Shown: positions 5,074-56,628 of the stretch, piece by piece
Position numbering within the stretch: position 1 is the first letter of the stretch
Layout: the number at the start of each line of letters is the position of its first letter
NCBI GenBank assembly: GCA_018061035.1
Contig: JAGOUX010000001.1
Coordinates: forward strand, 76,249-140,248
DNA from: Minisyncoccota bacterium
Lineage (GTDB): Bacteria; Patescibacteriota; Minisyncoccia; Phycocordibacterales; UBA9973
Reading direction: 5' to 3'
DNA length: 64,000 nucleotides
Translations under genes and position numbers: made by a program
Notes under the pieces: generated by a model
Databases searched by the model: none
What the model was told of the DNA's origin: nothing
The model's input: only the letters and a program-made list of their open reading frames with translations

Positions 5074-5099
5074 TTCCCCCAAAAAGCTAAAATAAACAC

Positions 5100-5657
5100 A
5101 TGGAACTCACAGAACTAGTTTTAACTCTAAAAATCCCGGCAACCATAGTCCACGTGGTCGCAGTCGTATTTGGTATGGGTAGCGCACTCGTGTCTGATCT
5201 GCTTTTCTCATTCTTCAGCAAAGACAAGCATTTGAACAAGACCGAGATGTCTACCCTCTCTATCCTCGCCACTGCTGTCTTTTATAGTTTAATACTCATC
5301 AGCCTGTCTGGATTAATAATTTTTCTTTCTGATATTGAAAAGTATTCTCATTCTGCAAAATTCCTAGCAAAAATAAGCATTCTCGCAATACTGATAATAA
5401 ATGGTTATGTGCTTAATAAATATGTCTGGCCTCACCTGCTTAATAAAAATTTCTTCACACTCAAGAAAGAACGCAATATCCGCAAGCTCGCCTTCGGATC
5501 CGGAGCAATATCTGTGATCTCTTGGCTCTCTGTCTGCGCTCTCGGAGTATTGGATAGTCTAAATATGCCGTATGTGGCAATCGTTTCCCTATATGCTTCC
5601 ATAATTGTATTGGGAACAATCGTGGCATTAGTTATTGAAAGAAAAGAATTCAACTAG
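5100..5657 (+). CDS. membrane protein, hypothetical
   Basis: 185-aa ORF with multiple hydrophobic segments. Confidence 0.5.
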   Translation: MELTELVLTLKIPATIVHVVAVVFGMGSALVSDLLFSFFSKDKHLNKTEMSTLSILATAVFYSLILISLSGLIIFLSDIEKYSHSAKFLAKISILAILIINGYVLNKYVWPHLLNKNFFTLKKERNIRKLAFGSGAISVISWLSVCALGVLDSLNMPYVAIVSLYASIIVLGTIVALVIERKEFN

Positions 5658-5730
5658 CAACGCCTCGAGAACCGAGACGGCTTCGAGGCGTAAAATAAAA
5701 CTATTATATTAAAAGAACTATTCGCCTGAA

Positions 5731-5765
5731 CCCGCCGGTAGACATTCACGGCGGGTTGTTCTTGC
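5731..5765 (+). terminator. GC hairpin CCCGCCG-N11-CGGCGGG followed by a T-rich tract
   Basis: Inverted repeat read directly. It lies between the 5100-5657 gene and a GC-rich patch. Confidence 0.4.
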
Positions 5766-5766
5766 G

Positions 5767-6141
5767 CTATCCCCGCTTTATTTCATTGGTCAACATGATT
5801 GCCCGCGGACCATGAATCCTGCGAATCCCATCGAACGATCTCGAGGGAGGCACGACCATGCGTTCCCTCGACAGCACCTGGCTGATGTACACCACATCGT
5901 TCGGATTCGGATCACTAAAGATCCTCAGGATAGTCTCACCCTCCTTCAGGATGAGGTACGGGGGCCTTTCCACCAGGAACTCATCTGCCCGCGCGATCTC
6001 CGTCAGGAACTTCTGATTCTCCGGCAGACTGACCGGAGTGATCTTCGAGGGGAGGAAGCCGTATTTCATCATGAGGGACACCAGCAACTTCATGCTGAGT
6101 GAGTTGACCTCCACGGTCGTGATCATTTCCAAAACAAACAT
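5767..6141 (-). CDS. hypothetical protein (GC-rich patch)
   Basis: 124-aa ORF. Several overlapping ORFs exist in this GC-rich patch, so frame choice is uncertain. Confidence 0.3.
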   Translation of the reverse strand: MFVLEMITTVEVNSLSMKLLVSLMMKYGFLPSKITPVSLPENQKFLTEIARADEFLVERPPYLILKEGETILRIFSDPNPNDVVYISQVLSRERMVVPPSRSFDGIRRIHGPRAIMLTNEIKRG

Positions 6142-6605: not shown

Positions 6606-6914
6606 ATGACAAATGAGCGGCTCGAAAAGCTTGGAGTTGTCGCCTTTGCAACAGGTATTGTGGTAGCGATAGATGGTATCGACGTTCCTCCATTTATCGT
6701 CTTCACTCTCACTTGCGGCGGCGCGGCAATCCTCGTGTTTTTGCACGACGCCTTCAAGTGGGCACTCGGCTCCGCGATTTTTATCGCTGCGGCCGTCTGT
6801 GCCTCGTCATGCACTAGCGACAAGTACATCCTGGCTGGTTGCTTTGCGATCTTCATGCTTGGCGTGAACTTCGCGCGACTTCTGGTCGGCGAAATGAAAA
6901 AGGAAATTGTTTGA
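6606..6914 (+). CDS. small membrane protein (GC-rich patch)
   Basis: 102-aa hydrophobic ORF. It is followed by a perfect 14+14 palindrome, TGGCCGGCGTCGTATACGACGCCGGCCA, at about 6923-6950. Confidence 0.35.
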   Translation: MTNERLEKLGVVAFATGIVVAIDGIDVPPFIVFTLTCGGAAILVFLHDAFKWALGSAIFIAAAVCASSCTSDKYILAGCFAIFMLGVNFARLLVGEMKKEIV

Positions 6915-7012
6915 TCAGTGGCCGGCGTCGTATACGACGCCGGCCATATTTATTTTAAATAAATCTAAGTTGATGCTATAATGGCACTATTATAATTAGT
7001 AAATATAAAAAT

Positions 7013-7387
7013 ATGAAAACAAAAGCACTTATTATAGGAATCATAATCATCGCCATCATCGGTTTTGCAGTAAATAAGCGTTCCGATAATGCACCGACAG
7101 TAGTAACTCCTGCGACCAACGATACAACAGGAATTCAAAAGGCTGAAACAGATTCATACACCATGGCCGAAGTAGCTACTCATAATACTCAGGCAGATTG
7201 TTGGACAACTATTAGTGGTAGTGTTTACAACGTAACTTCATGGATATCTGAGCACCCAGGAGGAGCAAAAGCTATCATCGGATTGTGTGGCATCGACGGC
7301 ACAGCAGGATTCACCGGACAGCACGGAGGACAGCCACGACCAGCAACAGAGCTTGCAGGATTCAAAATCGGAGCTCTCGCAAACTAG
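7013..7387 (+). CDS. cytochrome b5-like heme-binding domain protein with an N-terminal membrane anchor
   Basis: A-H-N-x(5)-C-W-x(4)-G-x-V-Y-N-V-T-x-W-x-x-E-H-P-G-G matches the cytochrome b5 family signature (HPGG). The N-terminus is a TM helix. Confidence 0.6.
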   Translation: MKTKALIIGIIIIAIIGFAVNKRSDNAPTVVTPATNDTTGIQKAETDSYTMAEVATHNTQADCWTTISGSVYNVTSWISEHPGGAKAIIGLCGIDGTAGFTGQHGGQPRPATELAGFKIGALAN

Positions 7388-42383: not shown

Positions 42384-43375
42384 TATATCTTAAACTCTAT
42401 CACATCCCCATCTTTTACAATATATTCCTTGCCTTCAGTGCGGACCAACCCCTTAGACCGTGCGGCAGCATATGAACCTGAATCAAGAAGATCTTTCCAG
42501 AAGACTACTTCCGCACGGATAAACTTATCTTTAAAGTCTGTATGAATTGCAGTTCCAGCTATCGGCGCAGTGGAACCTACCTTTATAGTCCAAGCACGAG
42601 TCTCGTCTTCACCAGTAGTGAGGAATGTTTCCAGCCCGAGAAGTTTGTAACTGCCAGTGATCAGGTCATCAAAACCTTTTTCAAAAACTGAATCAATATG
42701 AACAAATGGTCCAGGTACGGCAAACTCCACATTCTGGTTTGCTTCAGAAGTATTGAGCACATAGAGCATTGGCTTGAGGGTTAGGAGGTTGAGGGACTTG
42801 ATTCTAAACTTTTCATCATCATTAAGCTCCACATCTGTAGCCATTCTGCCTTCTTCGAGAACTTTTTCAATTTTCTTTAAAATAGCTTCTTCCGCTATTG
42901 CATCCTTGCTTCCCTTTTTCAAATCACCAGCCAAAGTTTTAATTCTTTTTGAAACTATTTCCATATCAGAGAGTACAAGCTCGAGGTTGATCACACCAAT
43001 ATCAGAAAGCGGGTCAATCTTGTTCGCAACGTGAATCACTGATGGATCTTCAAACACTCTCACCACATGAGCGATAGCATCAACCTCTCGAATATTTGAG
43101 AGAAATTTATTTCCAAGTCCTTCACCCTTAGAAGCACCAGCCACAAGACCCGCAATGTCTACGAATTCAATGACAGCTGGAATTGTCTTAGCAGATTTAG
43201 AAAATCCTGAGAGCTTCTGCACTCGCTCATCCGGCACTGGCACAATGCCTACTGATGGATCAATGGTGCAGAATGGATAGTTTTCTGCCGGAACGCTTTT
43301 CTTTGTAAGCGCGTTAAAAAGCGTGGACTTCCCCACATTCGGCAATCCGACAATACCGATAGCTAGTGCAGACAT
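42383..43375 (-). CDS. ychF: ribosome-binding ATPase YchF (Obg-family GTPase)
   Basis: G1 GIVGLPNVGKSTLFNALT and a C-terminal TGS domain. 330 aa. Confidence 0.85.
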   Translation of the reverse strand: MSALAIGIVGLPNVGKSTLFNALTKKSVPAENYPFCTIDPSVGIVPVPDERVQKLSGFSKSAKTIPAVIEFVDIAGLVAGASKGEGLGNKFLSNIREVDAIAHVVRVFEDPSVIHVANKIDPLSDIGVINLELVLSDMEIVSKRIKTLAGDLKKGSKDAIAEEAILKKIEKVLEEGRMATDVELNDDEKFRIKSLNLLTLKPMLYVLNTSEANQNVEFAVPGPFVHIDSVFEKGFDDLITGSYKLLGLETFLTTGEDETRAWTIKVGSTAPIAGTAIHTDFKDKFIRAEVVFWKDLLDSGSYAAARSKGLVRTEGKEYIVKDGDVIEFKI

Positions 43376-44969
43376 TGATATTTGATATTATTGGAACGAA
43401 TCCATAAACTTGTAATTTCTCTCTGGTACCGACCGCTTTATCTATAATACCTCTTACTATCTCCTTTTTTTCATCAAAACTCAAGTTTTTGAGTTCTTCT
43501 GGTGCATTTTGAGCAAAAGCTTCTATGTCACCCAACTTGGGAACCACACCCCCTTCTTTTTTACGATCCTCCGTTATTTCACTTATTTGGACATTAAGAA
43601 AAGAAATCTTGTCTCTAATTGGTATTGTATATTCTTTAAACTGATCTAAAGTAATAGCCCCAGCGCCATAAGCTTTAGCGTATCGATCTTCCTGGTTTTT
43701 TAATTTGGAGATCTCTCTTTCTGTTTCTTGGATGTTTATTGTCGGCCCTAGAATTGTCTGATTCTTAAGGTTGAGCCACACTTCAGCTTGTTCCAATAGT
43801 CGTTCCGGTGAACTTATAAGCTGAATTATCTCCTGCCAAACCATTTTATCAACTATACGTGCATTCAAACCTTTTTCATTACAAAGAGAAGGTAAAGGAA
43901 ATGAATTAACTCTACCAGAACAACGATAATATAAATGCTTACCTTTTTGAGGACCTTCCCCAGCTCGTCTTTGCCCGCAAACACACCATATCTGACCAGC
44001 TAGCAGATACTCGTTTTTGGTGTTTCTTCTTGAAAGAATGAAGCTTGATTTCAACTTCTGCCCAACTCTATTAAATACATCCTCGTCAATAATTTTTGGT
44101 ACAGGAATCTTTATCCATTCGCTTTCAGGTTTCATTTTTCTACTCGTTTTCTTGATCTTTTTGTAAGTCTCTTGCTTTAGTGGTTTTTGTGGTACCACAG
44201 CATACGAAGCTCCATAATGAGCTTCACCGATATAAGTTCTATTTCGCAAGAGAGTGCTCAATGTGCTCGTACTCCAAACACCTCGTTCGCTTTTTCGTGG
44301 TTTTATTTCTAATTCTTGAAGTTTTCGTACTAGTGCTCTTAAGGTCAAACCCTCATCATCTACCCATGAAAAAAGCTTCTTAACGGTCTCTGCTTCCTCT
44401 TCATTGACTTCGTAGTGACCTTGAGCAAAATCCGAATCTCCTCTTTTACCCTTTTTGATTAGAAGCGTATAACCATAAGGGGCTTGGCTACTGACTACAT
44501 GTCCTTCCTTAGCTTTCCGTACTTTACCCAATCTAAATCTCTCTTTGATTTTCATTCTTTCATACTCAGTAAAAACTCCTCTCATTTTATACATGATGAT
44601 ATCTTCGTCAGTTTTTGCTTGAGGGATTGTCACAAAGAGGACATCTATTTCTAACTCTTTGAGTTCTTCCATCACCACCTCTTGCCACGAACCACGCCTG
44701 GCAAGCCTATCTGGATCATACATTAAAACAGCTTCCCAGCTTTTTTTCTTCGCGTCCATACGAAGCTGATCAAGACCTGGCCTCGCTAGACTGTCACCAC
44801 TCCATCCATTATCTTCATATTCTTGCACAATAGTATAACCATTTTTTTGGGCAAATTCTTTGATAGCTAAGTTTTGAGTTTCAATAGTTCCCTCGTTTTC
44901 TTGATTCGAAGTAGACACCCGCTTATATGTAGCAACTAGCTTATTTACTTTTTTTATTTCTTCAATCAT
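43314..44969 (-). CDS. large serine recombinase (integrase)
   Basis: N-terminal resolvase catalytic domain (YKRVSTSNQ...), recombinase domain, zinc-ribbon Cys cluster (CVCGQ...YYRCSGR) and coiled coil. The final 20 codons read into the ychF start region. Confidence 0.85.
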   Translation of the reverse strand: MIEEIKKVNKLVATYKRVSTSNQENEGTIETQNLAIKEFAQKNGYTIVQEYEDNGWSGDSLARPGLDQLRMDAKKKSWEAVLMYDPDRLARRGSWQEVVMEELKELEIDVLFVTIPQAKTDEDIIMYKMRGVFTEYERMKIKERFRLGKVRKAKEGHVVSSQAPYGYTLLIKKGKRGDSDFAQGHYEVNEEEAETVKKLFSWVDDEGLTLRALVRKLQELEIKPRKSERGVWSTSTLSTLLRNRTYIGEAHYGASYAVVPQKPLKQETYKKIKKTSRKMKPESEWIKIPVPKIIDEDVFNRVGQKLKSSFILSRRNTKNEYLLAGQIWCVCGQRRAGEGPQKGKHLYYRCSGRVNSFPLPSLCNEKGLNARIVDKMVWQEIIQLISSPERLLEQAEVWLNLKNQTILGPTINIQETEREISKLKNQEDRYAKAYGAGAITLDQFKEYTIPIRDKISFLNVQISEITEDRKKEGGVVPKLGDIEAFAQNAPEELKNLSFDEKKEIVRGIIDKAVGTREKLQVYGFVPIISNINVCTSYRYCRIAECGEVHAF

Positions 44970-45184
44970 TTTTTGTTTTTACTTCTTTCCAAAAACTTTT
45001 TAATTTCAGATTTTGGTATCCGCAAAAGAGACGTCTTGCCTTCACCTAGCTTGTAACTTTTTAAAATACCGCTCTCAATCCAGCGATCAACCGTTCTTTC
45101 GTGAACCCTAAAGTATTTTGCTACTTCATTCCTTGTGAGAAATTCCATAAATATATTATGCTCAAAATTGTCTATTATTGTCAA
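44966..45184 (-). CDS. excisionase-family HTH DNA-binding protein
   Basis: LTRNEVAKYFRVHERTVDRWIESG is a MerR/excisionase-type HTH. It overlaps the recombinase start by 4 nt. Confidence 0.65.
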   Translation of the reverse strand: MTIIDNFEHNIFMEFLTRNEVAKYFRVHERTVDRWIESGILKSYKLGEGKTSLLRIPKSEIKKFLERSKNKK

Positions 45185-45399
45185 TTCAACTTATCCACAC
45201 TGTACATCTTTTTATATACCTTACTAAAGATAATATCGTAAACTTTGGCCAATCTTCTTTGTGTATCTTCCTCTGAAGCAGACTCAGAAACAAAATACGA
45301 AATCTTGGGGATTAAAACCTTTTTGGGCTTCCGTTTTCGTACCTCTTCCTTTGTTTCGACTTCAAATGACATATAAATTTTACTTTTTTGATAGCCCAA
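45181..45399 (-). CDS. hypothetical small protein
   Basis: 72-aa ORF whose stop overlaps the next gene's start. Confidence 0.3.
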   Translation of the reverse strand: MGYQKSKIYMSFEVETKEEVRKRKPKKVLIPKISYFVSESASEEDTQRRLAKVYDIIFSKVYKKMYSVDKLN

Positions 45400-45874
45400 A
45401 ATCCTGCTCTTCTCTCAACTGTTTTAGAGCCTTAATCATTTCTTTTTTGAGTTTTTCTTGAGTGAGATTATTTTCTCTGATTTCATCAGTGATTTTAACC
45501 TTGGAGAGATTTCTTATTCTTCTTCTAGATTCAGGGCCCCACGAATCATTAAAGGATTCTATCTCATCCCATTCTTGAAATTTTTGTTGACTGTTAAAAA
45601 TATTCCTCTCAATTTCACGGAATCTTCTCAATTTCCATCCCGAAAAAATATATGTTTTTAAAAATTCTTCTTCGATTTTCGATTGAGCACCCATCTTTTC
45701 ACGTATTTTAAGGACATAATCAGTAAAAATCCTCTTATTCTCCCCTTTTATGAGTACCTGTCGGCCCAAAACAACAGGATCTAACCCGTCTTCTAGTTCC
45801 TTAATTATTCTTTGTACTTTCTTAAAAGAGTTTATTCGCTGCTTATTCAATTTTATTTCTTTAATATTTTTCAT
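45380..45874 (-). CDS. hypothetical protein
   Basis: 164 aa, basic, with no motif. Confidence 0.35.
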   Translation of the reverse strand: MKNIKEIKLNKQRINSFKKVQRIIKELEDGLDPVVLGRQVLIKGENKRIFTDYVLKIREKMGAQSKIEEEFLKTYIFSGWKLRRFREIERNIFNSQQKFQEWDEIESFNDSWGPESRRRIRNLSKVKITDEIRENNLTQEKLKKEMIKALKQLREEQDFGLSKK

Positions 45875-45885
45875 ATTTTAAAACC

Positions 45886-48228
45886 CTAAAAAGGTATATC
45901 TTCCACATTAAGAAAAGACTTTTTTGGTAACTCCGGAGGCAGTTCATCAATTCCGTCTTGATCTTTTTCTACTACCGAACTTAAACCATGAAAAAGGTCA
46001 ACATCTTGCAGCGATGAAGCGATGGGAGCGATGTTTTCCTTAATCTTACGGATGGTTATCTTCCTATGTTGTCCACCTTCTCTTTCAACATAAATTCCTA
46101 CTTCTTCTAAGGTAGTTTTTAATGCCATGATATTACGACTAAAAACTTGAGGTGTATCTGGTATTTTTGTACGCCAGTCATCAATATATTTTAAACGTAA
46201 AATGGCAAGAAGTTCGGTAGCACTACCACTCCACTCTTCTTTATCAGCCATAAATTCCACAATGAAGGATGCTTCAAGGTTGTCATTAATAACTTCATCA
46301 CTCTGAAGATTTATATTCTGTGTATATGCACGCAAAAACTCTGCTCTGCTGTGACCCAATGCTTCAGCAATAGCACAACCCCATAATGTAAAATCAGCCA
46401 TGCGTGGAAGATTAGTCTCTTTTACTGTAGGGCGTATTTCCATAGCTTTAGATAACACAGTGAAGATAGAACCAAGCAATGACGGCAATTCAGCAGTGAA
46501 GTTATCTAGCATATCCTTCTCTTCCTTGCGCTTACCCTTTGGAATTCTCGCAAGGTCCACCAGGACACTACGCTCTAGTAGGTCTGGCTTGAGTGAAGGT
46601 AGATTAATGCCATTAAGTGATATACACCTCTTAAAGTTGTAGATAATATCGCTATCATCGCTGTATAGCTCCCGTTTAGAAAAGCCACTGCCTGTAACGG
46701 CTCTACACAATATGTCAGATAGTTCAGACGGTATTATGGTGATATTGTCGAAAACTAAAAACCAGTGGTGTGCTAATTGCTGTATCAATTCTTTCTGATC
46801 CTTCGGAAAATCACTACCATCAATCTTTGAGGGGTCAATTATCTTTTTGAGTATTTTAGATACAGTTGATTTTGCCGAACCTTGGGGACCATGAAAATAT
46901 ATCATTGGGTGTGGAAATCCAGGGATGAAACAACAAATTAACCATACTGCGAGCAATAATTTGTGGTCCTCGCGCTCAATGTTTATATAACTAAATAGAT
47001 TAAAAATATCACCACCTAACACAGGAGTCACTTGAGGTTGCTGATGGTTATACGTTCGAAAAAGAATAGGTGGATTCTTTTCTATGGTCCACCCAGTAGC
47101 AGATATTTTTACGCTTTGCCATTCACTATCGCTTAAAAAATAAAATATAGAATCACCTTTCTGGTTCACCCTATTTTCTAGTTCATATTGATTTCCTTCA
47201 TATGCCGCATGACCCTCAACTGTGTTTAGAGCAGTACTAATAGCATCATTGTTTGGCGTTTTAGAATACTTTTTCCAGTATTCTCTTCCAAGCCACATTT
47301 TTGTTTTCTTACTTCTGCACACATAGTATTCTTTATGATTATCAACAGGAAATTGTATGTATGGTTCATCTAGTTCACTACAAAAAAGTAGTATATCAGG
47401 GGATTCTAAAACTAGACTTACAATTTTATCGGCCTGACTTGTTGCTTTTTCCTTTCTCTCTTCTTCTTTATTTATATGATATTTTTTTATACTTTCCCAA
47501 ACCCCTCTTAATTCCTTTTCTGACATAGGCGGAATATTTTCACTATTCCAAACTTTAAAGTTTTTCCAGCCTACGCTTTCCCATAATTCCACAGGAGCAG
47601 AAAACAGCAACCTTCCTGCCATAGAAGCGGCAGTGTCATTTCTTAAGCCTTTGGGAGCGCCGTCTTTGAATGACAACCATTTTTTGTCGTTATTGCCTTG
47701 AGTCCTAATTTGAACAACCCATTCTGGCAGTTCAGAAAAATCAGAATCATCTGGCGAGATGAGCCACTCATACTCCCCTTTAGTACTTACGGACGGTGGT
47801 GCTACTACATAACCCCCATCCCCTCTTATATCTGTTAATTCTCGAACCCTTGTCCCATTTGAGACCTTCTCACTTGGGTGTTTGTAATAAAAATGCATAC
47901 CTCCCCCTCCAGTTTTAGCCGCCACTGTTGGCAGATACCCAGAACTATTGCCGTCTTTTTCAACATCTACAACAACGACCCCTGAAATCTTTCCAGTTAC
48001 GATAGCGATGCCTGCGTTTGGCCATACCGTCCACCAATTATTTATTTCTTCTTGTGTAGGAAATCTACTTTGAAATTCTGCCCAACTTATAAATGGTTTT
48101 TTATCAGCTTGAACAGGTATTATACTGAAACCTTTTCTAAGATAATGTAATGCCCAATCTAGATTTGTTTTTTTATTCTCTGGTGACATAAATATACAAA
48201 GCCGATGACATGTAACGCCTAGTAACAC
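45886..48228 (-). CDS. replicase: bifunctional DNA primase/polymerase (Prim-Pol) N-terminal domain fused to a P-loop SF3-like helicase/primase C-terminal domain
   Basis: Prim-Pol motifs VVVVDVEKDG and GGGMHFYYKH, then Walker A GPQGSAKST and Walker B LVFDNI. The listed start is GTG; an in-frame ATG lies 13 codons downstream (MSPENKK). Confidence 0.8.
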   Translation of the reverse strand: MLLGVTCHRLCIFMSPENKKTNLDWALHYLRKGFSIIPVQADKKPFISWAEFQSRFPTQEEINNWWTVWPNAGIAIVTGKISGVVVVDVEKDGNSSGYLPTVAAKTGGGGMHFYYKHPSEKVSNGTRVRELTDIRGDGGYVVAPPSVSTKGEYEWLISPDDSDFSELPEWVVQIRTQGNNDKKWLSFKDGAPKGLRNDTAASMAGRLLFSAPVELWESVGWKNFKVWNSENIPPMSEKELRGVWESIKKYHINKEEERKEKATSQADKIVSLVLESPDILLFCSELDEPYIQFPVDNHKEYYVCRSKKTKMWLGREYWKKYSKTPNNDAISTALNTVEGHAAYEGNQYELENRVNQKGDSIFYFLSDSEWQSVKISATGWTIEKNPPILFRTYNHQQPQVTPVLGGDIFNLFSYINIEREDHKLLLAVWLICCFIPGFPHPMIYFHGPQGSAKSTVSKILKKIIDPSKIDGSDFPKDQKELIQQLAHHWFLVFDNITIIPSELSDILCRAVTGSGFSKRELYSDDSDIIYNFKRCISLNGINLPSLKPDLLERSVLVDLARIPKGKRKEEKDMLDNFTAELPSLLGSIFTVLSKAMEIRPTVKETNLPRMADFTLWGCAIAEALGHSRAEFLRAYTQNINLQSDEVINDNLEASFIVEFMADKEEWSGSATELLAILRLKYIDDWRTKIPDTPQVFSRNIMALKTTLEEVGIYVEREGGQHRKITIRKIKENIAPIASSLQDVDLFHGLSSVVEKDQDGIDELPPELPKKSFLNVEDIPF

Positions 48229-48256
48229 ATCATCGGCTTTGTATACTAGGCGTTAC
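48196..48256. promoter_or_regulatory. two interleaved perfect 13-bp inverted repeats (A-B-A'-B') at the replicase 5' end
   Basis: A is acaaagccgatga (48196-48208), B is gtaacgcctagta (48212-48224), A' is tcatcggctttgt (48230-42) and B' is tactaggcgttac (48244-56). Confidence 0.4.
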
Positions 48257-48326
48257 CATATTAAAAACACCGAACTTATATATTCAGTGTAGTCATTTGA
48301 ATTATTATGTATAAAGTATTAAGGAG

Positions 48327-48971
48327 TTACTTATCCCTGATTTTTTTACCGAAGACTTTAGGTCGTTCTTTCTTTGGAATACCTAGCATATTGCATACAT
48401 CCGTCACAATGGTTCTCACGTTGGTTTCATCAATTTTTTGTTTGAAAGTTTTAAAAATATTATCTTGGATATTTTGCAAAGTGGAGCCACTTTTCGCCAT
48501 TTTAAAAATTGACAGATCTCTTTCCGAGTACAACTTCTTTCTATTCCTTTTGATTATTTGAGGCTTGAAATACTCTCCCATCAACTTAAATGCCAACTCA
48601 AAATCTTGGAGTCGCGTATTAGGTCCCACTTTTAAAAAATAATAATCAATAGTCTTTTTCTTTTCAGGAATTTGTATTACTAAACCATCTTTATCAAAAC
48701 AATGGTTTACATTTCTCAGCCCTTTATTTTGAATGAAATCAATCACTTCTTCTTGGTAACTTTTTTCTACATGTAGCCTTTTAAACAACTTTGTTATTTC
48801 AAGCTGTTTTTTCTTAGGAGAGGTTATTTTCATTATCTCCTCCGCTTCAGATAAAAATGATTCGTCATCAAAAATAGACTTGGATTTTAAATCGTAGGAC
48901 TTCTTAGGGGTTACATATTCTAGGCGCATACATTGAAAATGATACATTTTTTTGTCATAATAACAATACAA
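48327..48971 (-). CDS. hypothetical protein (element-encoded)
   Basis: 214 aa, basic. Confidence 0.4.
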   Translation of the reverse strand: MYCYYDKKMYHFQCMRLEYVTPKKSYDLKSKSIFDDESFLSEAEEIMKITSPKKKQLEITKLFKRLHVEKSYQEEVIDFIQNKGLRNVNHCFDKDGLVIQIPEKKKTIDYYFLKVGPNTRLQDFELAFKLMGEYFKPQIIKRNRKKLYSERDLSIFKMAKSGSTLQNIQDNIFKTFKQKIDETNVRTIVTDVCNMLGIPKKERPKVFGKKIRDK

Positions 48972-48989
48972 CTAAATAAATGACCTAAC

Positions 48990-49160
48990 CCTTAGGTATC
49001 CCTTAAGGTATGGCCGCAAGACCCATGGAAAGTACTGAACCCTACGTTCAGCGCTCTTCCATGGGCCGTATCTGGAAACGGATACGGGGTCGCAAGACCC
49101 AGCTGGCGTGGGGTTCTGTGCGTTCTCACGCTAGCTATTATTAGCTAGCTTTTATTTTTT
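48990..49160 (+). ncRNA. candidate structured RNA (GC-rich, multi-hairpin) ending in a strong intrinsic terminator
   Basis: Hairpins include CCCATGGAA...TTCCATGGG, CTGAAC/GTTCAG, GTATC/GATAC and GGGTC-GCAA-GACCC (GNRA loop). The terminator is GCTAGCT-attatt-AGCTAGC followed by TTTTATTTTTT. GC content is far above background. Confidence 0.3.
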
Positions 49161-49331
49161 ATGGTAACACTTTATTTGTGGGAAAAAGTAGTTTTAGGAG
49201 TAGTAGCTCTAGTATCGTTTGTTGCCGGAGTACAAACAGGTGGAATTATTGACGGTGTAATGGCGATGGCTATTAATACTCTTATTGCCTTTGTTCTATT
49301 TAAGGTTGGCAATAGAACTTTTAGGAGAAAA
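49161..49331 (+). CDS. small hydrophobic peptide (56 aa, 2 TM)
   Basis: ATG immediately after the terminator T-run. Sequence MVTLYLWEKVVLGVVALVSFVAG... Confidence 0.3.
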
Positions 49332-49338
49332 AAGTAAC

Positions 49339-49518
49339 ATGGAAGAAGATAATTGGAAACACACTCTGATTGGGTTGTTCATATTTATTGCAATCTGTCT
49401 TTTGGCTGGTTGGCTAAGTGAAAGGTTCCATGAACCTAAAGATTTGTGGGAATGTAATGGTGCTAATTCTCATCTTGATGACAACTTGCCGAAGTGTCCA
49501 TCTTGGATGTTTAAATAG
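49339..49518 (+). CDS. small hydrophobic peptide (59 aa, 1 TM)
   Basis: AGGAG RBS. Sequence MEEDNWKHTLIGLFIFIAICLLAGWL... The listed ORF has an in-frame upstream extension from 49285. Confidence 0.35.
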   Translation: MEEDNWKHTLIGLFIFIAICLLAGWLSERFHEPKDLWECNGANSHLDDNLPKCPSWMFK

Positions 49519-52500
49519 TTACAGCTCCCAATATTTACTTGGATTCCTCTCCCGTAATATATTTATTATCTTTTTAGCATCTTTGTTGGTTTTTGATAGT
49601 TCTTTAATAGTAGATACTAAATGGTCCGACTCATGAAGTTCTATTCCTTTAGGAAAGGAGAAGAATATTTTTGCAGCCTGCATGAAGTTATCTTTGCCTA
49701 CTTTTTCGTACAATAATTCCATAATATTGGTATGATACAGAGAAGGATACCAATAAACTTCTGATCTATTCCCTTTTTTTAGTTCTTTTTCGTAAAATTT
49801 CTTTTCAATCTTTAAACATTTAACTAACAAGTTAAACCATTTACTACTATGCTTATCTACACTCCTGAATTTATGCTCAATAGTCTGGTAAATCAAATTG
49901 AAAATGTTATGTGCATAAACGTCTGAAAGTAAGTCAAAGTATTCAATCGTCAAATTAATACATTTATCTATGTTATCTTCAGGTGAAACTTCACGCATCG
50001 TGTGTTCAGCCATTGAAGCAAATCGAAAACAACTATCCGGATTTTCTTTTTGTAATTTTTTTATAGTTTTAATTAAAATCGCCTTGAATTTTCTTTGATC
50101 GTATTTTTCTGGGCCTAAATCGTCATACAACCCTGGGGCACTAAATCTCCATTTTTTATATGTATTTTTCCTAAACTCAGCATAATATAAGAACAAGGCC
50201 GCAGACTCTTCCGTAACGTCTATTGGTAATTTAGTGAGAGCATTAACTAATCGAAGGGCTTCTGTCTCATTAAGCGAGCGTATACGATCAAAAACATGCA
50301 ATACACTCTTTGTCATAGCTTTTTGGACATTTAAGGGCCACAGAATCAACCTATCTAATAAATCGAATGCTATGTTTTCAATATCTTTTGATATTTGTAG
50401 AGCTTTCTTTTTATCGTTATTAAGAAATAAGGTATCACGATCACTCGGTAAAACTGTTAGGCGCACAGAGGCAAGCTGAGCAAGAGCATAGGATCCCATA
50501 TGTATTGCATAATAGTTTTTATCTTGCACTAATCTTTCGGTCAGATTAATTATCTTTCCTAAAAATTCTCTCCCTTCTAGCACAGAGCAGTTCATTAAAA
50601 CCCATCCACACCAACCCCTGACAGATGTAATACTGTGAGGTTCTTTTCCTCCCTCTATTCTCTTATGTTCATTATGTTCGTTATTTTTTTCTTGAGGATC
50701 TTGGCCAGGCATGTATGGATCAGGATCTTCCATAAAAATTTCAACAACTCTTAATGCCTCTTTTATTTTTTTATATTTAGCTAGCCTGTCAGCAAATTGT
50801 AAAATCGCAGACCTATGGCCTCCGATAGGAAATCTAATATATATTTTCTCTATATTGTTATCTAACTCGTTCAAAGCAGGATTTACAATATTCTCATATA
50901 TTTGCATAGTTGTTTCTTCACTATCTTTTGTGTTTTCATTTATATTGAGAAGACCATGAGTGTAGATAGCTTGTTGGTCTGGGCTAAGTACTTTTTTGCT
51001 TTCAAGTAGTCTAAAAATATCCAAACCCTGTGAGAAATCTTTCAATAAAATGTCATGCAAAAGACGAGCAAGTTCAAAAGCACTAAAGTGATCGCTCTTT
51101 TCTGACTCTCGATATTCACTTGTTATAACTAACTTGAATAAATAGATAGCAAAATCAATATCATTTTCTAGGAAGTTTCTAATTGTCGAAGTAGTATCCA
51201 TATCTGACATGAAACGATTATAATACTTAGGATTTTTGAACCATTTTTTTAATTCTTCGCGAGCTTTCTCATGACCTTTTTTTGCTAACTCACTTACAAC
51301 TTTTTCTACAAATGGATTAACTGGCACATTATATTTTTCCGTAGTTAATCTGATTAAATTCCACTTCTTAGAATCTGAAATGGTCGAACCCATTGTTGCC
51401 TGATAAATTAAATCGGATTTATGAGGAATACCTTTTCTCGACATAACAAACTCCCTCAGTATCTTAAATGCTTCTCCTGATATTTTTAGGTCTTCACTAG
51501 AATAACGCTGAAAAACAATTTCATATACAGATCTATTTAAGAAATCTGGTCTGTTTTTTGAAACTTTACTGGTTTGGTTAATGCAATAACTTTTAATAAA
51601 CTTCCAGCCCTTAGTTTTATCTTTATTGTAATATTGTAAAATACATGGAGCGAGAATAAATCCAATAAAATGCCTGTCTTCGATGTGATAATTACTTCCC
51701 CAGAAAGCTGTACCCCCACCCATGTGCTCCCAACCCTTAAATTCAAGCTTCTTACCAATCTTTTTGTAGTAGCGATCAAACTGACCAATAATTACTTTCA
51801 ACAAAACAGGAAATCTATGAGGAAAATCTTCATTTAGCCATTCTTTTAGAATATCGTAGACTTCTTTTGGGGCGTAATGATTAAACTGGCCATCGTCACG
51901 TGTGATGTTGAAAGAAGAAGTAAGTAACTTAAATATTTTCTGTTTTAATTCAAAATCTCCTTGTTTAAATATTTGGCCAATAAGCTTACAAACTTCTGCC
52001 TTCTCCCATTCCAAGTGGCTGTCATTATTACTCTTTAAGTAGAAAAATTCATCTTTATTGTAGCTAATAAGATCTTGTGTGATATTAAAAGCAATATTTA
52101 AATAATTTTCCCCATCTTTATTTTCGATAATTTTCTTCAAAATTTTAATAACTGACGTACTAAAGAAATCTGAAGAACTATAATACCCCCTAATAGTTCT
52201 AGAATGACTTTTAATATAGCTAAGTGCGTATTCTTTATTTTTTATCGTTGTTAAATTATTTTCAAAAACATTAAAAATACCAAAGGAAAATGGGTGCACC
52301 TTGTTTAACTTCCACAAACTACTCCATTTCCTCAAATCTAAGTCCTGACGATTCTTTAGACGGTCCATAGCAAATGACATAAGATCCCATCTGGCCGAAA
52401 AGGCAGACAGAGAACCAGTACCCCATTTAATACCCTTATGTCCATTTATATTTTTTTCTAAAAGAAAAAATTGTTTCTTCTTTTTATTTTGATTATTGAA

Positions 52501-53127
52501 ATAATCGCTTCTTTCCTCAACTCTAGTCCTTAAAGCAATTACATCTTGATTAAAATCAACACGAGAGTAAGTGGAGCCTGTAGTTGATTTTTTGAAAATG
52601 TTATTTTTAAAAATACTGTCAGTAAATTCCTTTACATCTTCTTCAGGAAGCCAAAATTTAATAGCATCAGCAACTAAAGAATAATTTAATTCCTCGTCAA
52701 TTTTTTCTGATAGTTTCCAAAATTTAACTTTAGATAAAAGTTCAATACATTCATCACTATAACCTTTTCTCTTAAAAAAACTTTTAATATCTTCAAAATA
52801 TTTAATATTTTTAACTTTAGATTCTAAATCAGTACTAAGCTTTTTGCAAACTATCAAGATTTCATCCTGAACTCCAATTGATTTTTTCTTTTCTATGTTC
52901 TCTAAAATTTCTTTAAGTTGAGCATAGTCTAAATTAACTCCTTTATATTTTGATTCACAGACTATTTTTTTATCTTCTGCAAAAACAAGATCGAAATCCT
53001 CAGATTTACTTGATTCTAAATGAATATATGAAAATCTATGATCACGCAAAAACTGCAAGAATAAAGACATAGCTGCCCAATTCTGTACGTATATTCCTAT
53101 TTGTGTATTTTGTCCGGCTTTAGTCAT
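49519..53127 (-). CDS. 1202-aa protein: N-terminal PD-(D/E)xK-like nuclease domain plus a long alpha-helical repeat region, no NTPase motifs
   Basis: The N-terminus has a G-I-Y-V-Q...EDFDLVF...CESK signature that aligns with the N-terminus of the upstream 268-aa protein. I found no Walker A. It is translationally coupled, lying 4 nt after the upstream gene. Confidence 0.75.
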   Translation of the reverse strand: MTKAGQNTQIGIYVQNWAAMSLFLQFLRDHRFSYIHLESSKSEDFDLVFAEDKKIVCESKYKGVNLDYAQLKEILENIEKKKSIGVQDEILIVCKKLSTDLESKVKNIKYFEDIKSFFKRKGYSDECIELLSKVKFWKLSEKIDEELNYSLVADAIKFWLPEEDVKEFTDSIFKNNIFKKSTTGSTYSRVDFNQDVIALRTRVEERSDYFNNQNKKKKQFFLLEKNINGHKGIKWGTGSLSAFSARWDLMSFAMDRLKNRQDLDLRKWSSLWKLNKVHPFSFGIFNVFENNLTTIKNKEYALSYIKSHSRTIRGYYSSSDFFSTSVIKILKKIIENKDGENYLNIAFNITQDLISYNKDEFFYLKSNNDSHLEWEKAEVCKLIGQIFKQGDFELKQKIFKLLTSSFNITRDDGQFNHYAPKEVYDILKEWLNEDFPHRFPVLLKVIIGQFDRYYKKIGKKLEFKGWEHMGGGTAFWGSNYHIEDRHFIGFILAPCILQYYNKDKTKGWKFIKSYCINQTSKVSKNRPDFLNRSVYEIVFQRYSSEDLKISGEAFKILREFVMSRKGIPHKSDLIYQATMGSTISDSKKWNLIRLTTEKYNVPVNPFVEKVVSELAKKGHEKAREELKKWFKNPKYYNRFMSDMDTTSTIRNFLENDIDFAIYLFKLVITSEYRESEKSDHFSAFELARLLHDILLKDFSQGLDIFRLLESKKVLSPDQQAIYTHGLLNINENTKDSEETTMQIYENIVNPALNELDNNIEKIYIRFPIGGHRSAILQFADRLAKYKKIKEALRVVEIFMEDPDPYMPGQDPQEKNNEHNEHKRIEGGKEPHSITSVRGWCGWVLMNCSVLEGREFLGKIINLTERLVQDKNYYAIHMGSYALAQLASVRLTVLPSDRDTLFLNNDKKKALQISKDIENIAFDLLDRLILWPLNVQKAMTKSVLHVFDRIRSLNETEALRLVNALTKLPIDVTEESAALFLYYAEFRKNTYKKWRFSAPGLYDDLGPEKYDQRKFKAILIKTIKKLQKENPDSCFRFASMAEHTMREVSPEDNIDKCINLTIEYFDLLSDVYAHNIFNLIYQTIEHKFRSVDKHSSKWFNLLVKCLKIEKKFYEKELKKGNRSEVYWYPSLYHTNIMELLYEKVGKDNFMQAAKIFFSFPKGIELHESDHLVSTIKELSKTNKDAKKIINILRERNPSKYWEL

Positions 53128-53131
53128 ATAT

Positions 53132-53938
53132 TTATGATTTTATGGCTTCTCCTTCTTTATTCTTATCTTTTTTAATCTTAATTGGATTCGCCCTCATTCT
53201 ATCATCAATAATTTTATTGATAACATCCAAAGGTAACCTTACCTCAGTTGAGTGAAGACCTTCTTTAAGTAAATTTGATCCACGAAAACTTACAAGAAAA
53301 TCATTTATGAGATCTTTAATATTCCCCACAGAATAGATTCTTTCCAAGGAGTTCCCTTTACAGGAAATTTTATCTATCTCATCCCTGAGTCTGGCTATAA
53401 AACTTCTTACCGCCTCAGTATGTATGTCAGAACCTGGCCCTAGTGCCTTTTTAAGTATCTCAGTCGCCGCCAAAAGAACTAGTCCGTCAATTTGTCTGTG
53501 GTCATAAGCTAAATAATCAATTTCAATCCGATTTTTATCTATTCCTTTTAATGATGCTTCTATAAATCTTTTAGTTGCAGTGCTATATTTAATACCCCTA
53601 TCGTCTCCTCTAATATTTAAAAATAAATAGGCAAGAGATTTTGAAGGGTTTTTTGTAAAGATAAATTTAAAAGAGCTGTCCTTTTTGCTTGATTGTGTCG
53701 CCTTGCTAAAATAATACAATAGAATATTATTAGTTTCCTTGGCAGTTAAGCCCACTAAGCTTGATTTAACTTGATACCCAGCAAAGCTCGACTTACTCCA
53801 AATTTCAAAGTCCATTTTATCCTGCTCACAAAATACTTGTTCAAATTCTGCGTTATTACCTAAATTTTCTAAGGCAAAATAAACAGAACATAAATCTTGA
53901 TACCTGAAACCAGTTTTTGCTGATGGTCCTCCGCTCAT
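53132..53938 (-). CDS. 268-aa protein with an N-terminal PD-(D/E)xK-like (DUF4297/Cap4-nuclease-like) domain
   Basis: GFRYQDLCSVYFAL ... MDFEIW ... YQVK, i.e. D...(Q/E)xK spacing. It is paralogous to the N-terminus of the 1202-aa protein. Confidence 0.7.
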   Translation of the reverse strand: MSGGPSAKTGFRYQDLCSVYFALENLGNNAEFEQVFCEQDKMDFEIWSKSSFAGYQVKSSLVGLTAKETNNILLYYFSKATQSSKKDSSFKFIFTKNPSKSLAYLFLNIRGDDRGIKYSTATKRFIEASLKGIDKNRIEIDYLAYDHRQIDGLVLLAATEILKKALGPGSDIHTEAVRSFIARLRDEIDKISCKGNSLERIYSVGNIKDLINDFLVSFRGSNLLKEGLHSTEVRLPLDVINKIIDDRMRANPIKIKKDKNKEGEAIKS

Positions 53939-55266: not shown

Positions 55267-56628
55267 TTAAAAGTCATTAAGACGTTCTTTTAGCCAGCCA
55301 TTTTCAGGGTAAATAAATTTATCTACCTCAATTTTACTAGTAAAGTATCTATCGTGCGAGACTACAAGAATCGCACCTTGGTATTCCATAAGTGCGTTTT
55401 CAATTACCTCCCTCGACTGTATATCTAAGTGATTTGTCGGTTCATCCAAAACCAATAGCTCGTGCTTCTGATTTGTCAGTTTTGCAAATATAAGACGAAC
55501 TCGTTCACCATGACTAAGTGATGATACTTTTTTAAACACAGCTTGATCCGAAAAAAGAAAAGCTCCGAGAACTTGTCGTGGATCTTTTGAAGTTATTAAA
55601 CTAGAAGTACTCAAGAATTCTTCCAGTACGGTCTTGTTAACATCGAGCTGTTCGTGCTCTTGTGCAAAATATCCAATAGACACATTAGTCCCGATTTTTA
55701 TTTCACCGCTATCTGGTTTTAAATCACCTGTGATTATTTTAAGTAATGTAGTTTTACCTGAACCATTATTTCCCGACAACAGTATTTTCTCTTTTCCTCT
55801 AATCTCAAAAGAAACATTCTTAAGTACAGGTTTTTGGTTAAAACTTTTTACAAGGTTATCACATCGCAAAACAAGTTTTGTATTTGCTACTTCGCCAAGA
55901 ATATTCACTCCTTTGATTTTCTTAAAGCTTTCTGGTTTTTTAATCTCCTTGTTGTGAATTTCTCTTTCTAGATATTTTTCTTTGGCACGAATCATCTTTC
56001 CCTTGCTAGCACTAGAGTAAATTGAGGCTTCCTGTTTTTTGAGAACTAGCCAATTTTCGAGTCGTTTCTTTTCTCTCTGTTGTAATCTATATGAGTTTTC
56101 TTGTCTTTCAGTACTTCTCTTTTTCTCAGTTATGTAATTGGTATATCCACCCAGATATTCATTAAAAGAATTGTTGACGGGATCAATTTCCAATATTTTG
56201 TTTACAGTATTATCAAGCAACCGCCTGTCATGGGAAATGACCAGCACACAGCCCCTAAAGTTCTTTATGACGTCCTCAAGCCACAGAATTGCGTCTAGAT
56301 CCAAGTGATTGGTCGGCTCATCTAAAAGAAGCACTGTTGGTTTTTCTTTCAAGATGGTTTCTAAAGCTAGACGAGTTTTCTGCCCACCACTTAACTTTGA
56401 GTCATTAAATACTATTTGCTGAGGAAGATAACCTATGCGTTCATTCTCTATTTTGATTAAGCCATTATCGATTTCGACTTCACCGACGATTGCTTTAAGT
56501 AAAGTAGATTTACCTGCACCATTTGGTCCTACTAGCCCGATACGATCACCTCTATGCAACACAAAAGAAACCTTTTCAAAAAGATTCTCACCTGCAATAC
56601 TTACGCTTACGTTTTTTATGATTATCAT
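55267..56628 (-). CDS. ABC-F family ATPase (two tandem NBDs, no TMD), compact at 453 aa
   Basis: NBD1 has GPNGAGKST, LSGGQK, LLLDEPTNHLD and SHDR. An inter-domain linker of about 75 aa follows. NBD2 has GNNGSGKTT, LSHGER, LVLDEPTNHLD and SHDR. Confidence 0.8.
   Translation of the reverse strand: MIIIKNVSVSIAGENLFEKVSFVLHRGDRIGLVGPNGAGKSTLLKAIVGEVEIDNGLIKIENERIGYLPQQIVFNDSKLSGGQKTRLALETILKEKPTVLLLDEPTNHLDLDAILWLEDVIKNFRGCVLVISHDRRLLDNTVNKILEIDPVNNSFNEYLGGYTNYITEKKRSTERQENSYRLQQREKKRLENWLVLKKQEASIYSSASKGKMIRAKEKYLEREIHNKEIKKPESFKKIKGVNILGEVANTKLVLRCDNLVKSFNQKPVLKNVSFEIRGKEKILLSGNNGSGKTTLLKIITGDLKPDSGEIKIGTNVSIGYFAQEHEQLDVNKTVLEEFLSTSSLITSKDPRQVLGAFLFSDQAVFKKVSSLSHGERVRLIFAKLTNQKHELLVLDEPTNHLDIQSREVIENALMEYQGAILVVSHDRYFTSKIEVDKFIYPENGWLKERLNDF

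Follow-up and report, generated by a model that had tools for sequence, protein, structure and literature searches.

A LOOT RNA in an Integrative Island of a Pacebacteria Genome as a Candidate Attenuating Leader of Two Small Hydrophobic Protein Genes

Introduction

Attenuators of the trp type and the leaders of riboswitch and T-box systems carry expression platforms composed of a terminator and an antiterminator. A second kind of regulatory RNA is found in phages, where the c4 RNA of P1 and P7 (the C4 family of Rfam) and the CI RNA of P4 are immunity RNAs whose targets are complementary sites repeated within their own operons. In this report, we describe a structured RNA of the LOOT family that is located within a 64,000-nucleotide stretch of a Minisyncoccota genome (contig JAGOUX010000001.1 of assembly GCA_018061035.1, forward-strand positions 76,249 to 140,248). 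This whole stretch is hereafter called the window, and all positions for the locus are counted from its first nucleotide. The RNA precedes two short open reading frames (ORFs), designated here as pep1 and pep2, and we propose, with a probability of roughly 0.55, that it functions as a cis-acting attenuating 5' leader of the pep1-pep2 operon.

The name LOOT reportedly stands for "lots of tetraloops", and the RNA is said to have been suggested to be a small RNA (sRNA). The family type given by Rfam, where LOOT has the accession RF03000, is "Gene; sRNA". The motif originates in the survey of Weinberg et al. from 2017 (PMC5737381). LOOT is displayed as a "metagenomic-based RNA" in the paper on Rfam 14 (PMC7779021), and it also appears in the covariation work on CaCoFold and Rfam 15 (PMC7657543 and PMC11701678). 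No paper that gives LOOT a function or a host range was found in the searchable literature. The Pacebacteria are placed by the NCBI taxonomy within the Minisyncoccota, which correspond to the Patescibacteria or candidate phyla radiation (CPR).

The RNA in the window has the same series of tetraloop-bearing hairpins as the Rfam family (P1, P3, P4, and P5), with no differences in the core, and the same conserved CCUAA...YAUGG and GAAA nucleotides. What is added here beyond the 121-nucleotide model is a covarying helix between a 3' tail and the apex of P3, a platform composed of an anti-tail and a terminator, and an upstream ACAAYT motif, together with a distribution in CPR bacteria and mobile elements and a set of co-oriented genes for membrane proteins. 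Taken together, these features favor a role in cis over the label "sRNA".

The resemblance to the attenuators lies in four consecutive segments with mutually exclusive 1:2, 2:3, and 3:4 pairings, in two folds of near-equal stability, and in a hairpin and U-run right before an ORF. LOOT differs from them in having no leader peptide, no recognized ligand or tRNA-binding domain, and no known effector; its segment 1 is a hairpin apex within a tertiary-structured domain, and the 1:2 pairing forms a pseudoknot with the P3a helix. Like the c4 and CI RNAs, LOOT is small and structured and is encoded in the lysogeny or accessory region of a temperate element, and a repeat of one P3a strand at ~15% of the loci mirrors the a1 / a' / a2 logic of the c4 RNA. 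There is no similarity to these RNAs in either sequence or structure, however, and the complementary strand of LOOT is held in a helix, whereas those of the c4 and CI RNAs are exposed in loops. In addition, the repeat is missing from the window, and the genes downstream of LOOT do not encode antirepressors.

Results

Identification of the LOOT RNA

When the whole window was searched with cmscan against Rfam, LOOT was matched at 48982-49100, on the plus strand only, over model positions 1-121 of 121. The score was 78.4 bits, compared with a gathering score of 46.4, and the E value was 4.6e-13. When the region from 48700 to 49600 was scanned permissively at E <= 1, nothing besides LOOT was found. 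The segment from 48982 to 49100 is certainly a LOOT family member, and the locus itself is a further member of a catalogued family and hence by itself not novel.

A preliminary description of this locus had singled out a GC-rich stretch inside AT-rich surroundings. The GC fraction of 49000-49149 was determined to be 0.56-0.57, compared with 0.27-0.39 for the flanks. The GGGTC-GCAA-GACCC hairpin with its GCAA tetraloop was located at 49087-49100, and the motif gcaagaccc does occur twice, at 49016-49024 and 49092-49100. In full, the repeat comprises 11 nucleotides (cgcaagaccca); it was rejected as a family-wide feature and is instead made up of the AAGACC-type linker and the P5 GCAA hairpin of the window's subfamily. 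The preliminary description had also called for a covariance search and for an examination of covariation in homologous loci. The first gave the full-length LOOT match, and the second gave compensatory changes in P1, P4, and the apex-tail helix that is presented below. Its general picture of a structured RNA of a mobile element, with GNRA hairpins and a terminator, followed by two genuine genes for small hydrophobic proteins, is thus retained; what it overlooked was the identity of the RNA as a known family and the role of the terminator in alternative pairing.

The segment from 48972 to 49162 was predicted to fold with an energy of -80.3 kcal/mol, which corresponds to z = -6.6 relative to dinucleotide shuffles. 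The reverse strand was found to fold equally well (z = -6.9), and the strand is therefore not assignable from the folding energy alone.

Relatives of the RNA were collected into a comparison set of more than 250 LOOT loci. Searches of the locus with megablast and blastn against collections of phages and plasmids yielded nothing usable. Retrieval was done with a degenerate pattern derived from the Rfam consensus, the first and loose version of which gave 120 matches, mostly due to chance, that were filtered by folding before the pattern was tightened. The tightened pattern returned 8 contigs from IMG/VR and at least 120 contigs among the GTDB species representatives, and a pattern specific for the tail of the window's RNA added at least 120 contigs from metagenomes. 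Rfam re-confirmed sixteen instances from 15 loci at 58.6-93.8 bits, and the range widens to 47.6-93.8 bits with the inclusion of two more. The retrieval patterns fix the sequences CCTAA, GYATGG, and GAAA, so that invariance at these positions is partly by construction, and the Rfam consensus was used for them instead.

Core Hairpins and the Tetraloop Receptor

The core of the RNA (48982-49100), when folded alone, gave the hairpins P1, P3, P4, and P5 with an energy of -53.3 kcal/mol. All of them are on the plus strand. P1 (48982-49015) contains an internal loop of CCUAAC (48984-48989) opposite UAUGG (49009-49013), which has the form of an 11-nucleotide GAAA tetraloop receptor. P3 (49022-49065) is a long hairpin that is present in the Rfam consensus structure and in the core fold. 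It is composed of a lower helix, P3a (49022-49032 paired with 49054-49065), and an apical hairpin, P3b, in which CUGAAC (49035-49040) is paired with GUUCAG (49046-49051); the apex of P3, at 49033-49052, is segment 1 of the switch proposed here. P4 (49067-49086) is a hairpin of 8 bp with a GAAA loop at 49075-49078, the proposed partner of the receptor in P1, and P5 (49087-49100) is the GGGUC-GCAA-GACCC hairpin. A minor departure from the conserved nucleotides is found in the linker, which is CGCAAGA in the window and AAAAA in the consensus. The other conserved nucleotides, CCUAA / YAUGG and the GAAA of P4 (upper-case in the Rfam consensus), fit.

Pairing was evaluated in an alignment of 42 diverse homologues. 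For P1 and P4, the paired fraction is 93-96%, and compensatory changes are present; in P4, such changes were observed in 8 of 9 pairs, with 95.5% of the cells being paired. The standard 11-nucleotide GAAA tetraloop receptor has the sequence CCUAAG_UAUGG (PMC11381326), and this receptor is also treated in PMC2615604. P1 of the window matches it at 10 of the 11 positions and differs at position 6. The loop is flanked by C-G pairs, and the loop of P4 is GAAA. The known receptor has G/U at positions 6/7, whereas LOOT mostly has A/C or C/U, which covary. Among 160 LOOTs, A/C, C/U, C/C, A/U, and G/U were found 107, 43, 7, 2, and 1 times, respectively, and one locus (L103) carries the canonical receptor sequence. 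Docking of the P4 GAAA loop into the receptor of P1 is probable, and it would brace P1 against P4.

The 3' Tail and the Apex-Tail Helix

Beyond the end of the Rfam model the RNA continues on the plus strand into a 3' tail, AGCUGGCGUGGGGUUCUGUGC, at 49101-49121. This is segment 2, which is able to pair with either the apex of P3 or the anti-tail. In every homologue, P5 is followed by a tail with the consensus GCUGGCGGCGGG and then CUUUUUGU, which is complementary to the apex of P3. The apex-tail helix of the window has 18 bp and a duplex energy of -26.5 kcal/mol.

This long-range helix was selected unprompted by RNAalifold from a plain MAFFT alignment of the 42 diverse sequences. A total of 11 pairs were found to be 90-94% paired, 10 of them with compensatory changes, and the covariation of the helix equals that of P1 and P4 in the same alignment. 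When the partner was slid by 1-3 columns, the pairing fell to 33-48%. The median duplex energies for cognate and non-cognate apex-tail combinations were determined to be -22.0 and -12.2 kcal/mol, respectively, and the cognate pair ranked in the top 5% at 79 of 125 loci. The apex-tail helix overlaps the P3b of Rfam and crosses P3a, and it is thus a topological pseudoknot.

The Anti-Tail and the Terminator

The segments that follow the tail were compared within the window's subfamily, which consists of 22 sequences (the window, L225, and 20 metagenome contigs). The order of elements in this subfamily is the tail GCUGGCGUGGGG, a degenerate U-stretch, the anti-tail (C)CACGCUAGCU, the hairpin GCUAGCU-AUUAUC-AGCUAGC, a U-run, and an ATG, which directly follows the U-run in nearly all members. 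The anti-tail of the window, UCUCACGCUAGCU at 49124-49136 on the plus strand, is segment 3. Its possible pairing with the tail spans 13 bp (-22.1 kcal/mol), and the 3' half of the anti-tail doubles as the 5' arm of an intrinsic terminator that was found by a terminator scan at 49130-49160 on the same strand. The 8 pairs of the terminator stem (49130-49137 with 49142-49149) represent segments 3:4, and the U-run occupies 49150-49160. The preliminary description had given this terminator as GCTAGCT-loop-AGCTAGC plus 11 consecutive T residues; the hairpin was found at 49130-49149 as GCTAGCT(A)-loop-(T)AGCTAGC, and the sequence from 49150 to 49160 is instead TTTTATTTTTT, or T4-A-T6.

Within the subfamily, the 18 pairs of 1:2 (apex:tail) are 98-99.7% paired, the 13 pairs of 2:3 (tail:anti-tail) are 95.3% paired, and 3:4 (the terminator) is 97% paired. 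Triple covariation was observed in L225 and L285, where the change of a G to U in the tail is accompanied by the change of C to A in the apex partner and of U/C to A in the anti-tail partner. In L298, a change in the apex is matched both in the 3' strand of P3b and in the tail. The fold of minimum free energy for the window contains apex:tail together with the terminator (-78.9 kcal/mol). The fold with an intact Rfam P3 and tail:anti-tail, in which the terminator is unable to form, has an energy of -76.7 kcal/mol. The terminated and antiterminated folds are thus predicted to be nearly isoenergetic by an energy model that ignores pseudoknots and tertiary contacts. The 1:2, 2:3, 3:4 layout is the logic of a terminator/antiterminator leader.

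Promoter and 5' Motif

A promoter-like site was identified with a consensus scan at 48933-48961 on the plus strand. It has the -35 sequence TTGAAA (48933-48938), a 17-nucleotide spacer with a TG, and the -10 sequence CATAAT (48956-48961), and it agrees at 10 of 12 positions, with the TG, as a consensus match alone. The sequence ACAACT at 48968-48973 (plus strand), which is the copy of the ACAAYT motif in the window, is the presumed transcription start and 5' end of the RNA. Across the family, ACAATT or ACAACT was found 11-25 nucleotides upstream of CCTAA at 106 of 157 loci, compared with 1-2 in a control interval, and TATAAT-like boxes are enriched 26-35 nucleotides upstream of CCTAA, ~10 nucleotides beyond ACAAYT. 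Its spacing to the -10 box makes ACAAYT the probable point of transcription initiation. The motif may serve CPR bacteria or their phages as an initiator or promoter element, or it may provide a 5' strand for pairing with UUGU, which is conserved in the 3' U-stretch.

Conservation with the closest relatives at the level of DNA is confined to 48947/48966-49165 (77-81% identity), and the flanks differ. This conserved segment is a unit composed of promoter, RNA, and terminator. The preliminary description had considered that the region might simply be the 3' untranslated region of a neighbor of the gene at 48327-48971; the RNA was instead found to be divergent from that gene, with its own promoter-like site, and to be a discrete conserved unit. 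The consensus scan found no promoter in the interval between the RNA and pep1.

The pep1 and pep2 Genes and Their Counterparts

The pep1 gene (49161-49337, plus strand) begins with an ATG that directly follows the U-run, and it encodes a protein of 58 amino acids with two predicted transmembrane (TM) segments and a basic C-terminus. The pep2 gene (49339-49518, plus strand) encodes a protein of 59 amino acids with one predicted TM segment, and the sequence AGGAG is found at 49323-49327, 11 nucleotides ahead of its ATG. The two ORFs after the T-run, the AGGAG, and the head-on layout had all been recognized before, with a length of 56 amino acids for the first ORF that is corrected here to 58 and a length of 59 for the second that is unchanged. 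In this layout the stop codon of pep2 (49518) abuts that of a convergent ORF for 1202 amino acids at 49519-53127.

The pep1 protein is 100% identical to the NCBI hypothetical protein KBD55_00740, annotated in the metagenome-assembled genome of a Candidatus Pacebacteria bacterium, and this match assigns the window to the Pacebacteria. Its only other database homologue, P0002 (75% identity), is found directly behind a LOOT of a different subfamily. At the locus L265, LOOT is accompanied by a homologue of pep1 (54.5%, E = 1.7e-17), a homologue of pep2 (46.5% over 43 amino acids, E = 7e-7), and a convergent gene. All four instances of the pep1 family (the window, L265, L366, and L367) are located directly behind LOOTs, and these LOOTs are of different subfamilies. 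As judged from these sequences, pep1 and pep2 are real genes. No match to a toxin family was found for the locus in PADLOC, Pfam, or NCBIfam.

When the family is taken as a whole, LOOT and the first ORF of at least 80 amino acids behind it share an orientation at 99 of 116 loci, and the downstream start codon is located at a median distance of 52 nucleotides past the U-run. At least one TM segment was predicted for 84 of 119 downstream ORFs, compared with 33% for all of the ORFs in the loci, using Kyte-Doolittle windows as a crude criterion. The downstream proteins have a median length of 153 amino acids, and many of them have large extracytoplasmic domains. Among them are a single-pass "KKWW-TM" family, a zinc-ribbon-TM family, a nuclease-like family, and methyltransferases.

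The linker and the 5' strand of P3a were found to be repeated 3-12 nucleotides before the downstream ATG at about 19 of 127 loci (~15%) when at least 11 of 14 identities were demanded; two controls gave 2/127 and 1/127. The copies are 13-18 nucleotides in length and are located 140-176 nucleotides after the start of LOOT (for example, in L126, L120, L127, L149, and L213), and they covary with P3a between loci. Because of this repeat of the 5' strand, the initiation region at these loci is complementary to the 3' strand of P3a. No such repeat of the P3a strand is present in the window.

Distribution and Genomic Neighborhoods

For the at least 120 GTDB contigs, 71 of the 80 record titles that were listed are those of CPR lineages. 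These include Saccharibacteria, Parcubacteria/Paceibacterota, and Microgenomates-type lineages as well as Doudna-, Uhr-, Kaiser-, Nomura-, Falkow-, and Peregrinibacteria. LOOT is, on the evidence of these records, overwhelmingly an RNA of CPR/Patescibacteria and CPR phages. Five matches to the pattern (L138, L193, L173, L187, and L188) are in metagenome-assembled genomes labeled as Gammaproteobacteria, Bdellovibrionales, Alphaproteobacteria, or Thiotrichales. The full LOOT architecture of L138 suggests a mis-binned CPR or phage contig, and L188, which has neither tail nor U-run, may be a chance match. LOOT is present twice on the 5-kb contig L125, at 3618-3738 (plus strand) and 4295-4412 (minus strand), with the two copies facing each other ~600 nucleotides apart, and L150 and L159 are two LOOT-bearing contigs of one assembly, CAZXKC01.

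Where at least 4.5 kb of upstream sequence was at hand, a gene for a large serine recombinase was found upstream of LOOT at 22 of 51 loci; it was found downstream at 6 of 49. The recombinase is the immediate divergent neighbor of LOOT at 15 of 128 loci. Genes for terminase, ParB-methylase, and small helix-turn-helix proteins also recur around LOOT. In several phage contigs, LOOT is located between the genes for the recombinase and the terminase and is therefore inside the phage genome. Apart from the serine recombinase, no dedicated partner protein recurs next to LOOT among the 128 loci. In CPR temperate phages and integrative islands, LOOT thus occupies an accessory slot. In L225, which contains the closest genome relative of the window's LOOT, the adjoining ORFs at 4732-5970 and 6632-7330 look by eye like a Shedu-type (DUF4263-like) nuclease and a DUF3800 protein, which suggests a defense-island setting.

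The LOOT of the window is found in an island of ~12 kb, from about 43.3 to 55.2 kb, between flanks of housekeeping genes (LepA, an ABC exporter, MurJ, LeuRS, and YchF on the left; HIT, kinase, Nudix, and PfkB on the right). The left portion of the island is a run of genes on the minus strand (43314-48971). It includes a large serine recombinase (43314-44969), a PrimPol of 780 amino acids with a PriCT domain (45886-48228), and a protein of 214 amino acids that is divergent from LOOT (48327-48971), as well as a protein of 164 amino acids and two ORFs for 72 amino acids each. The 3' end of the recombinase gene overlaps the annotated start of the host ychF gene and marks the left end of the integrative element. 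No viral relatives were found for the 214-amino acid protein, and it has a single homologue among the fetched LOOT loci, in L236.

On the other side of LOOT, a gene for a protein of 268 amino acids and then the 1202-amino acid ORF (49519-53127, minus strand; convergent with pep2) share one operon at 49519-53938 on the minus strand. The smaller protein has a Cap4-type nuclease domain (Pfam PF14130) and resembles HamA/LmuA, with PADLOC matches to HamA and LmuA. The larger one has no match in Pfam, PHROG, PADLOC, or NCBIfam. Together, they may constitute an unclassified two-gene defense system of the Hachiman or Lamassu type. The RNA lies between the recombinase/PrimPol genes and the nuclease gene and is therefore internal to a small integrative element. 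At or just beyond the right edge of the island is the gene for an ABC-F protein (55267-56628, minus strand), which scored 422 bits against a cut-off of 380 for the NCBIfam entry "ribosomal protection-like ABC-F". Seven tRNA genes (Glu-CTC, Ser-CGA, Glu-TTC, Val-GAC, Phe-GAA, Arg-CCT, and Gly-CCC) are dispersed singly on both strands among the housekeeping genes between positions 200 and 29920 of the window.

Discussion

In the mechanism proposed here for an attenuating leader, transcription would start from the promoter ~20 nucleotides upstream of the RNA, and P1, P3, P4, and P5 would fold into a compact domain that is braced by docking of the P4 GAAA loop into the 11-nucleotide receptor of P1. 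The expression platform behind P5 would be formed from segments 1 (the apex of P3), 2 (the tail), 3 (the anti-tail), and 4 (the 3' arm of the terminator). Invasion of the P3 apex by the tail (1:2) would leave the anti-tail free, the terminator (3:4) would form, and transcription would stop at the U-run with the release of an RNA of ~180 nucleotides, which possibly accumulates as a stable product. If the apex stays closed, then the tail would pair with the anti-tail (2:3), no terminator would form, and the polymerase would read into pep1 and then pep2. The family membership, the helices with their conservation or covariation, the near-equal fold energies, the constant gene order, and the reality of the peptides are all shown by the sequences, and switching in vivo would be a further inference. 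The leading guess for the function of the membrane peptides is that of prophage-type cargo, for example in exclusion or as holin-like proteins, because they sit in the accessory/defense slot of the element. A leader peptide initiated at the AUG of the receptor was considered and rejected; the length and stop position of this ORF are not conserved, and at 47 of 160 loci it stops within 10 codons.

Several observations weigh against this mechanism. There is no conserved leader peptide, no conserved neighboring partner protein, and no obvious ligand pocket, and the functional heterogeneity of the downstream genes is unusual for a metabolite riboswitch. The loop of the terminator holds a -10-like sequence, TATTAT (49135-49140), and it may contain an internal promoter for pep1. 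The register of the window's P3b is kept in 52% of the cells in a family-wide MAFFT alignment that is not structure-fitted and in which the registers of the subfamilies differ; the "closed apex" state thus appears to be less uniformly supported than the apex-tail helix. The subfamily sequences are ~75-80% identical, with one fully compensatory pair in 2:3 and none in 3:4. Since the subfamily is moderately diverged, these two pairings rest mostly on conservation and one-sided changes. A free-standing RNA might simply owe a stable 3' end to the pseudoknot and the U-run, and both Rfam and the source paper file LOOT as an sRNA.

The view of Rfam is the alternative that survives best, and we regard it as possible, if doubtful. 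LOOT would then be a free-standing and trans-acting sRNA, expressed from its own promoter and ending at the pseudoknot and U-run or at the terminator, whose site of action is elsewhere, either on a target (RNA or protein) or in a structural role through self-assembly. The gene behind LOOT would be a mere neighbor, expressed by leakage or from a promoter of its own. The type "Gene; sRNA" agrees with this view, as do the promoter-like site and strong terminator that LOOT possesses, the diversity of the downstream gene families, and the finding that the promoter-RNA-terminator unit is the sole part conserved between relatives at the level of DNA. A compact and tetraloop-rich structure with a receptor is also found in stable RNAs, and the apex-tail helix, the best-conserved feature, could be a static pseudoknot. 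Against an sRNA of this kind, however, stand the 85% co-orientation with the next gene and the short and regular spacing, the ATG that abuts the terminator U-run in the window's subfamily, a tail that keeps two alternative partners, and the duplication of the lower P3 strand at the downstream initiation region in ~15% of the loci. Furthermore, no target in trans was found; complementarity to the neighboring mRNAs of the window did not go beyond that of shuffled sequences.

The preliminary description had likened the locus to a type I toxin-antitoxin module, in which pep1 and/or pep2 would be membrane toxins and the RNA would serve either as the antitoxin or as a 5' structure that inhibits the toxin mRNA. 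The locus does share with such modules a mobile element as its carrier and a structured RNA that precedes small hydrophobic ORFs. In size and hydrophobicity, the two peptides are like type I toxins or holins, they are found behind a highly structured leader with a terminator, and the location is a mobile or defense island. Nevertheless, LOOT is upstream of and sense to the peptide genes, with no antisense partner, and its complementarity to their mRNAs does not exceed that of shuffled controls. The duplex of LOOT with the pep1-pep2 mRNA was calculated at -79.6, compared with a shuffle mean of -79.4, and the duplexes at the initiation regions were matched by 47 of 200 and 20 of 200 shuffles. 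The sole antisense promoter-like site is at the level expected by chance (6 sites found vs 7.2 expected). Across the family, the downstream proteins are unrelated to one another, mostly longer (median of 153 amino acids), and in many cases endowed with large extracytoplasmic domains, and matches to toxin families are absent from PADLOC, Pfam, and NCBIfam. The toxin-antitoxin explanation is accordingly set aside as improbable.

A role in recombination, with LOOT as a guide or cofactor RNA of the serine recombinase or as its attachment site, is more improbable still. The bias of the recombinase toward the upstream side of LOOT (22/51 loci vs 6/49 downstream, and 15/128 as the immediate divergent neighbor) and the short direct repeats of a LOOT segment downstream in ~15% of the loci fit such a role. 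However, a recombinase is missing from the vicinity of more than half of the loci, and that of the window lies at the edge of the island beside ychF, 4 kb from LOOT, which is internal. In the phage contigs, LOOT is likewise inside the element, between the recombinase and the terminase. Covariation that includes G-U pairs indicates selection at the RNA level on one strand, and the repeated segment is in a helix rather than a loop. Least probable of all is a self-cleaving or other element-encoded ribozyme, which had also been raised in the preliminary description: the compact tertiary structure with its tetraloop-receptor pair is like that of many ribozymes, but LOOT is the sole Rfam match with no ribozyme family at E <= 1, the conserved nucleotides are nearly all those of the receptor, the tetraloops, and the junction purines, and there is no conserved internal loop resembling a catalytic core.

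If the attenuating leader is considered for the family at large, LOOT might tentatively be viewed as an unrecognized class of signal-responsive riboregulator of CPR/Patescibacteria mobile elements that gates membrane "cargo" genes. It is conceivable, although still speculative, that the braced domain is a sensor for temperature, for an ion or small molecule, or for a factor from the host or a phage. With similar reserve, the input might select between the pseudoknotted, terminated state and read-through into genes for superinfection-exclusion or holin-like proteins. In such a system an abundant terminated product could act in trans or could self-assemble via the GAAA/receptor pair.

The distribution of LOOT in CPR bacteria and mobile elements, the extended covarying structure, and the interpretation as an attenuator are new as far as the searchable literature goes. 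LOOT has been an orphan structured RNA of the 2017 Breaker/Weinberg survey, and there is now a concrete hypothesis for it that can be tested by mutation. The regulation of genes in CPR bacteria is almost unexplored, and LOOT, if the proposal is true, would be among the first regulatory devices to be described there. The LOOT switch would then also provide a handle on the genes that CPR prophages express in the lysogenic state.

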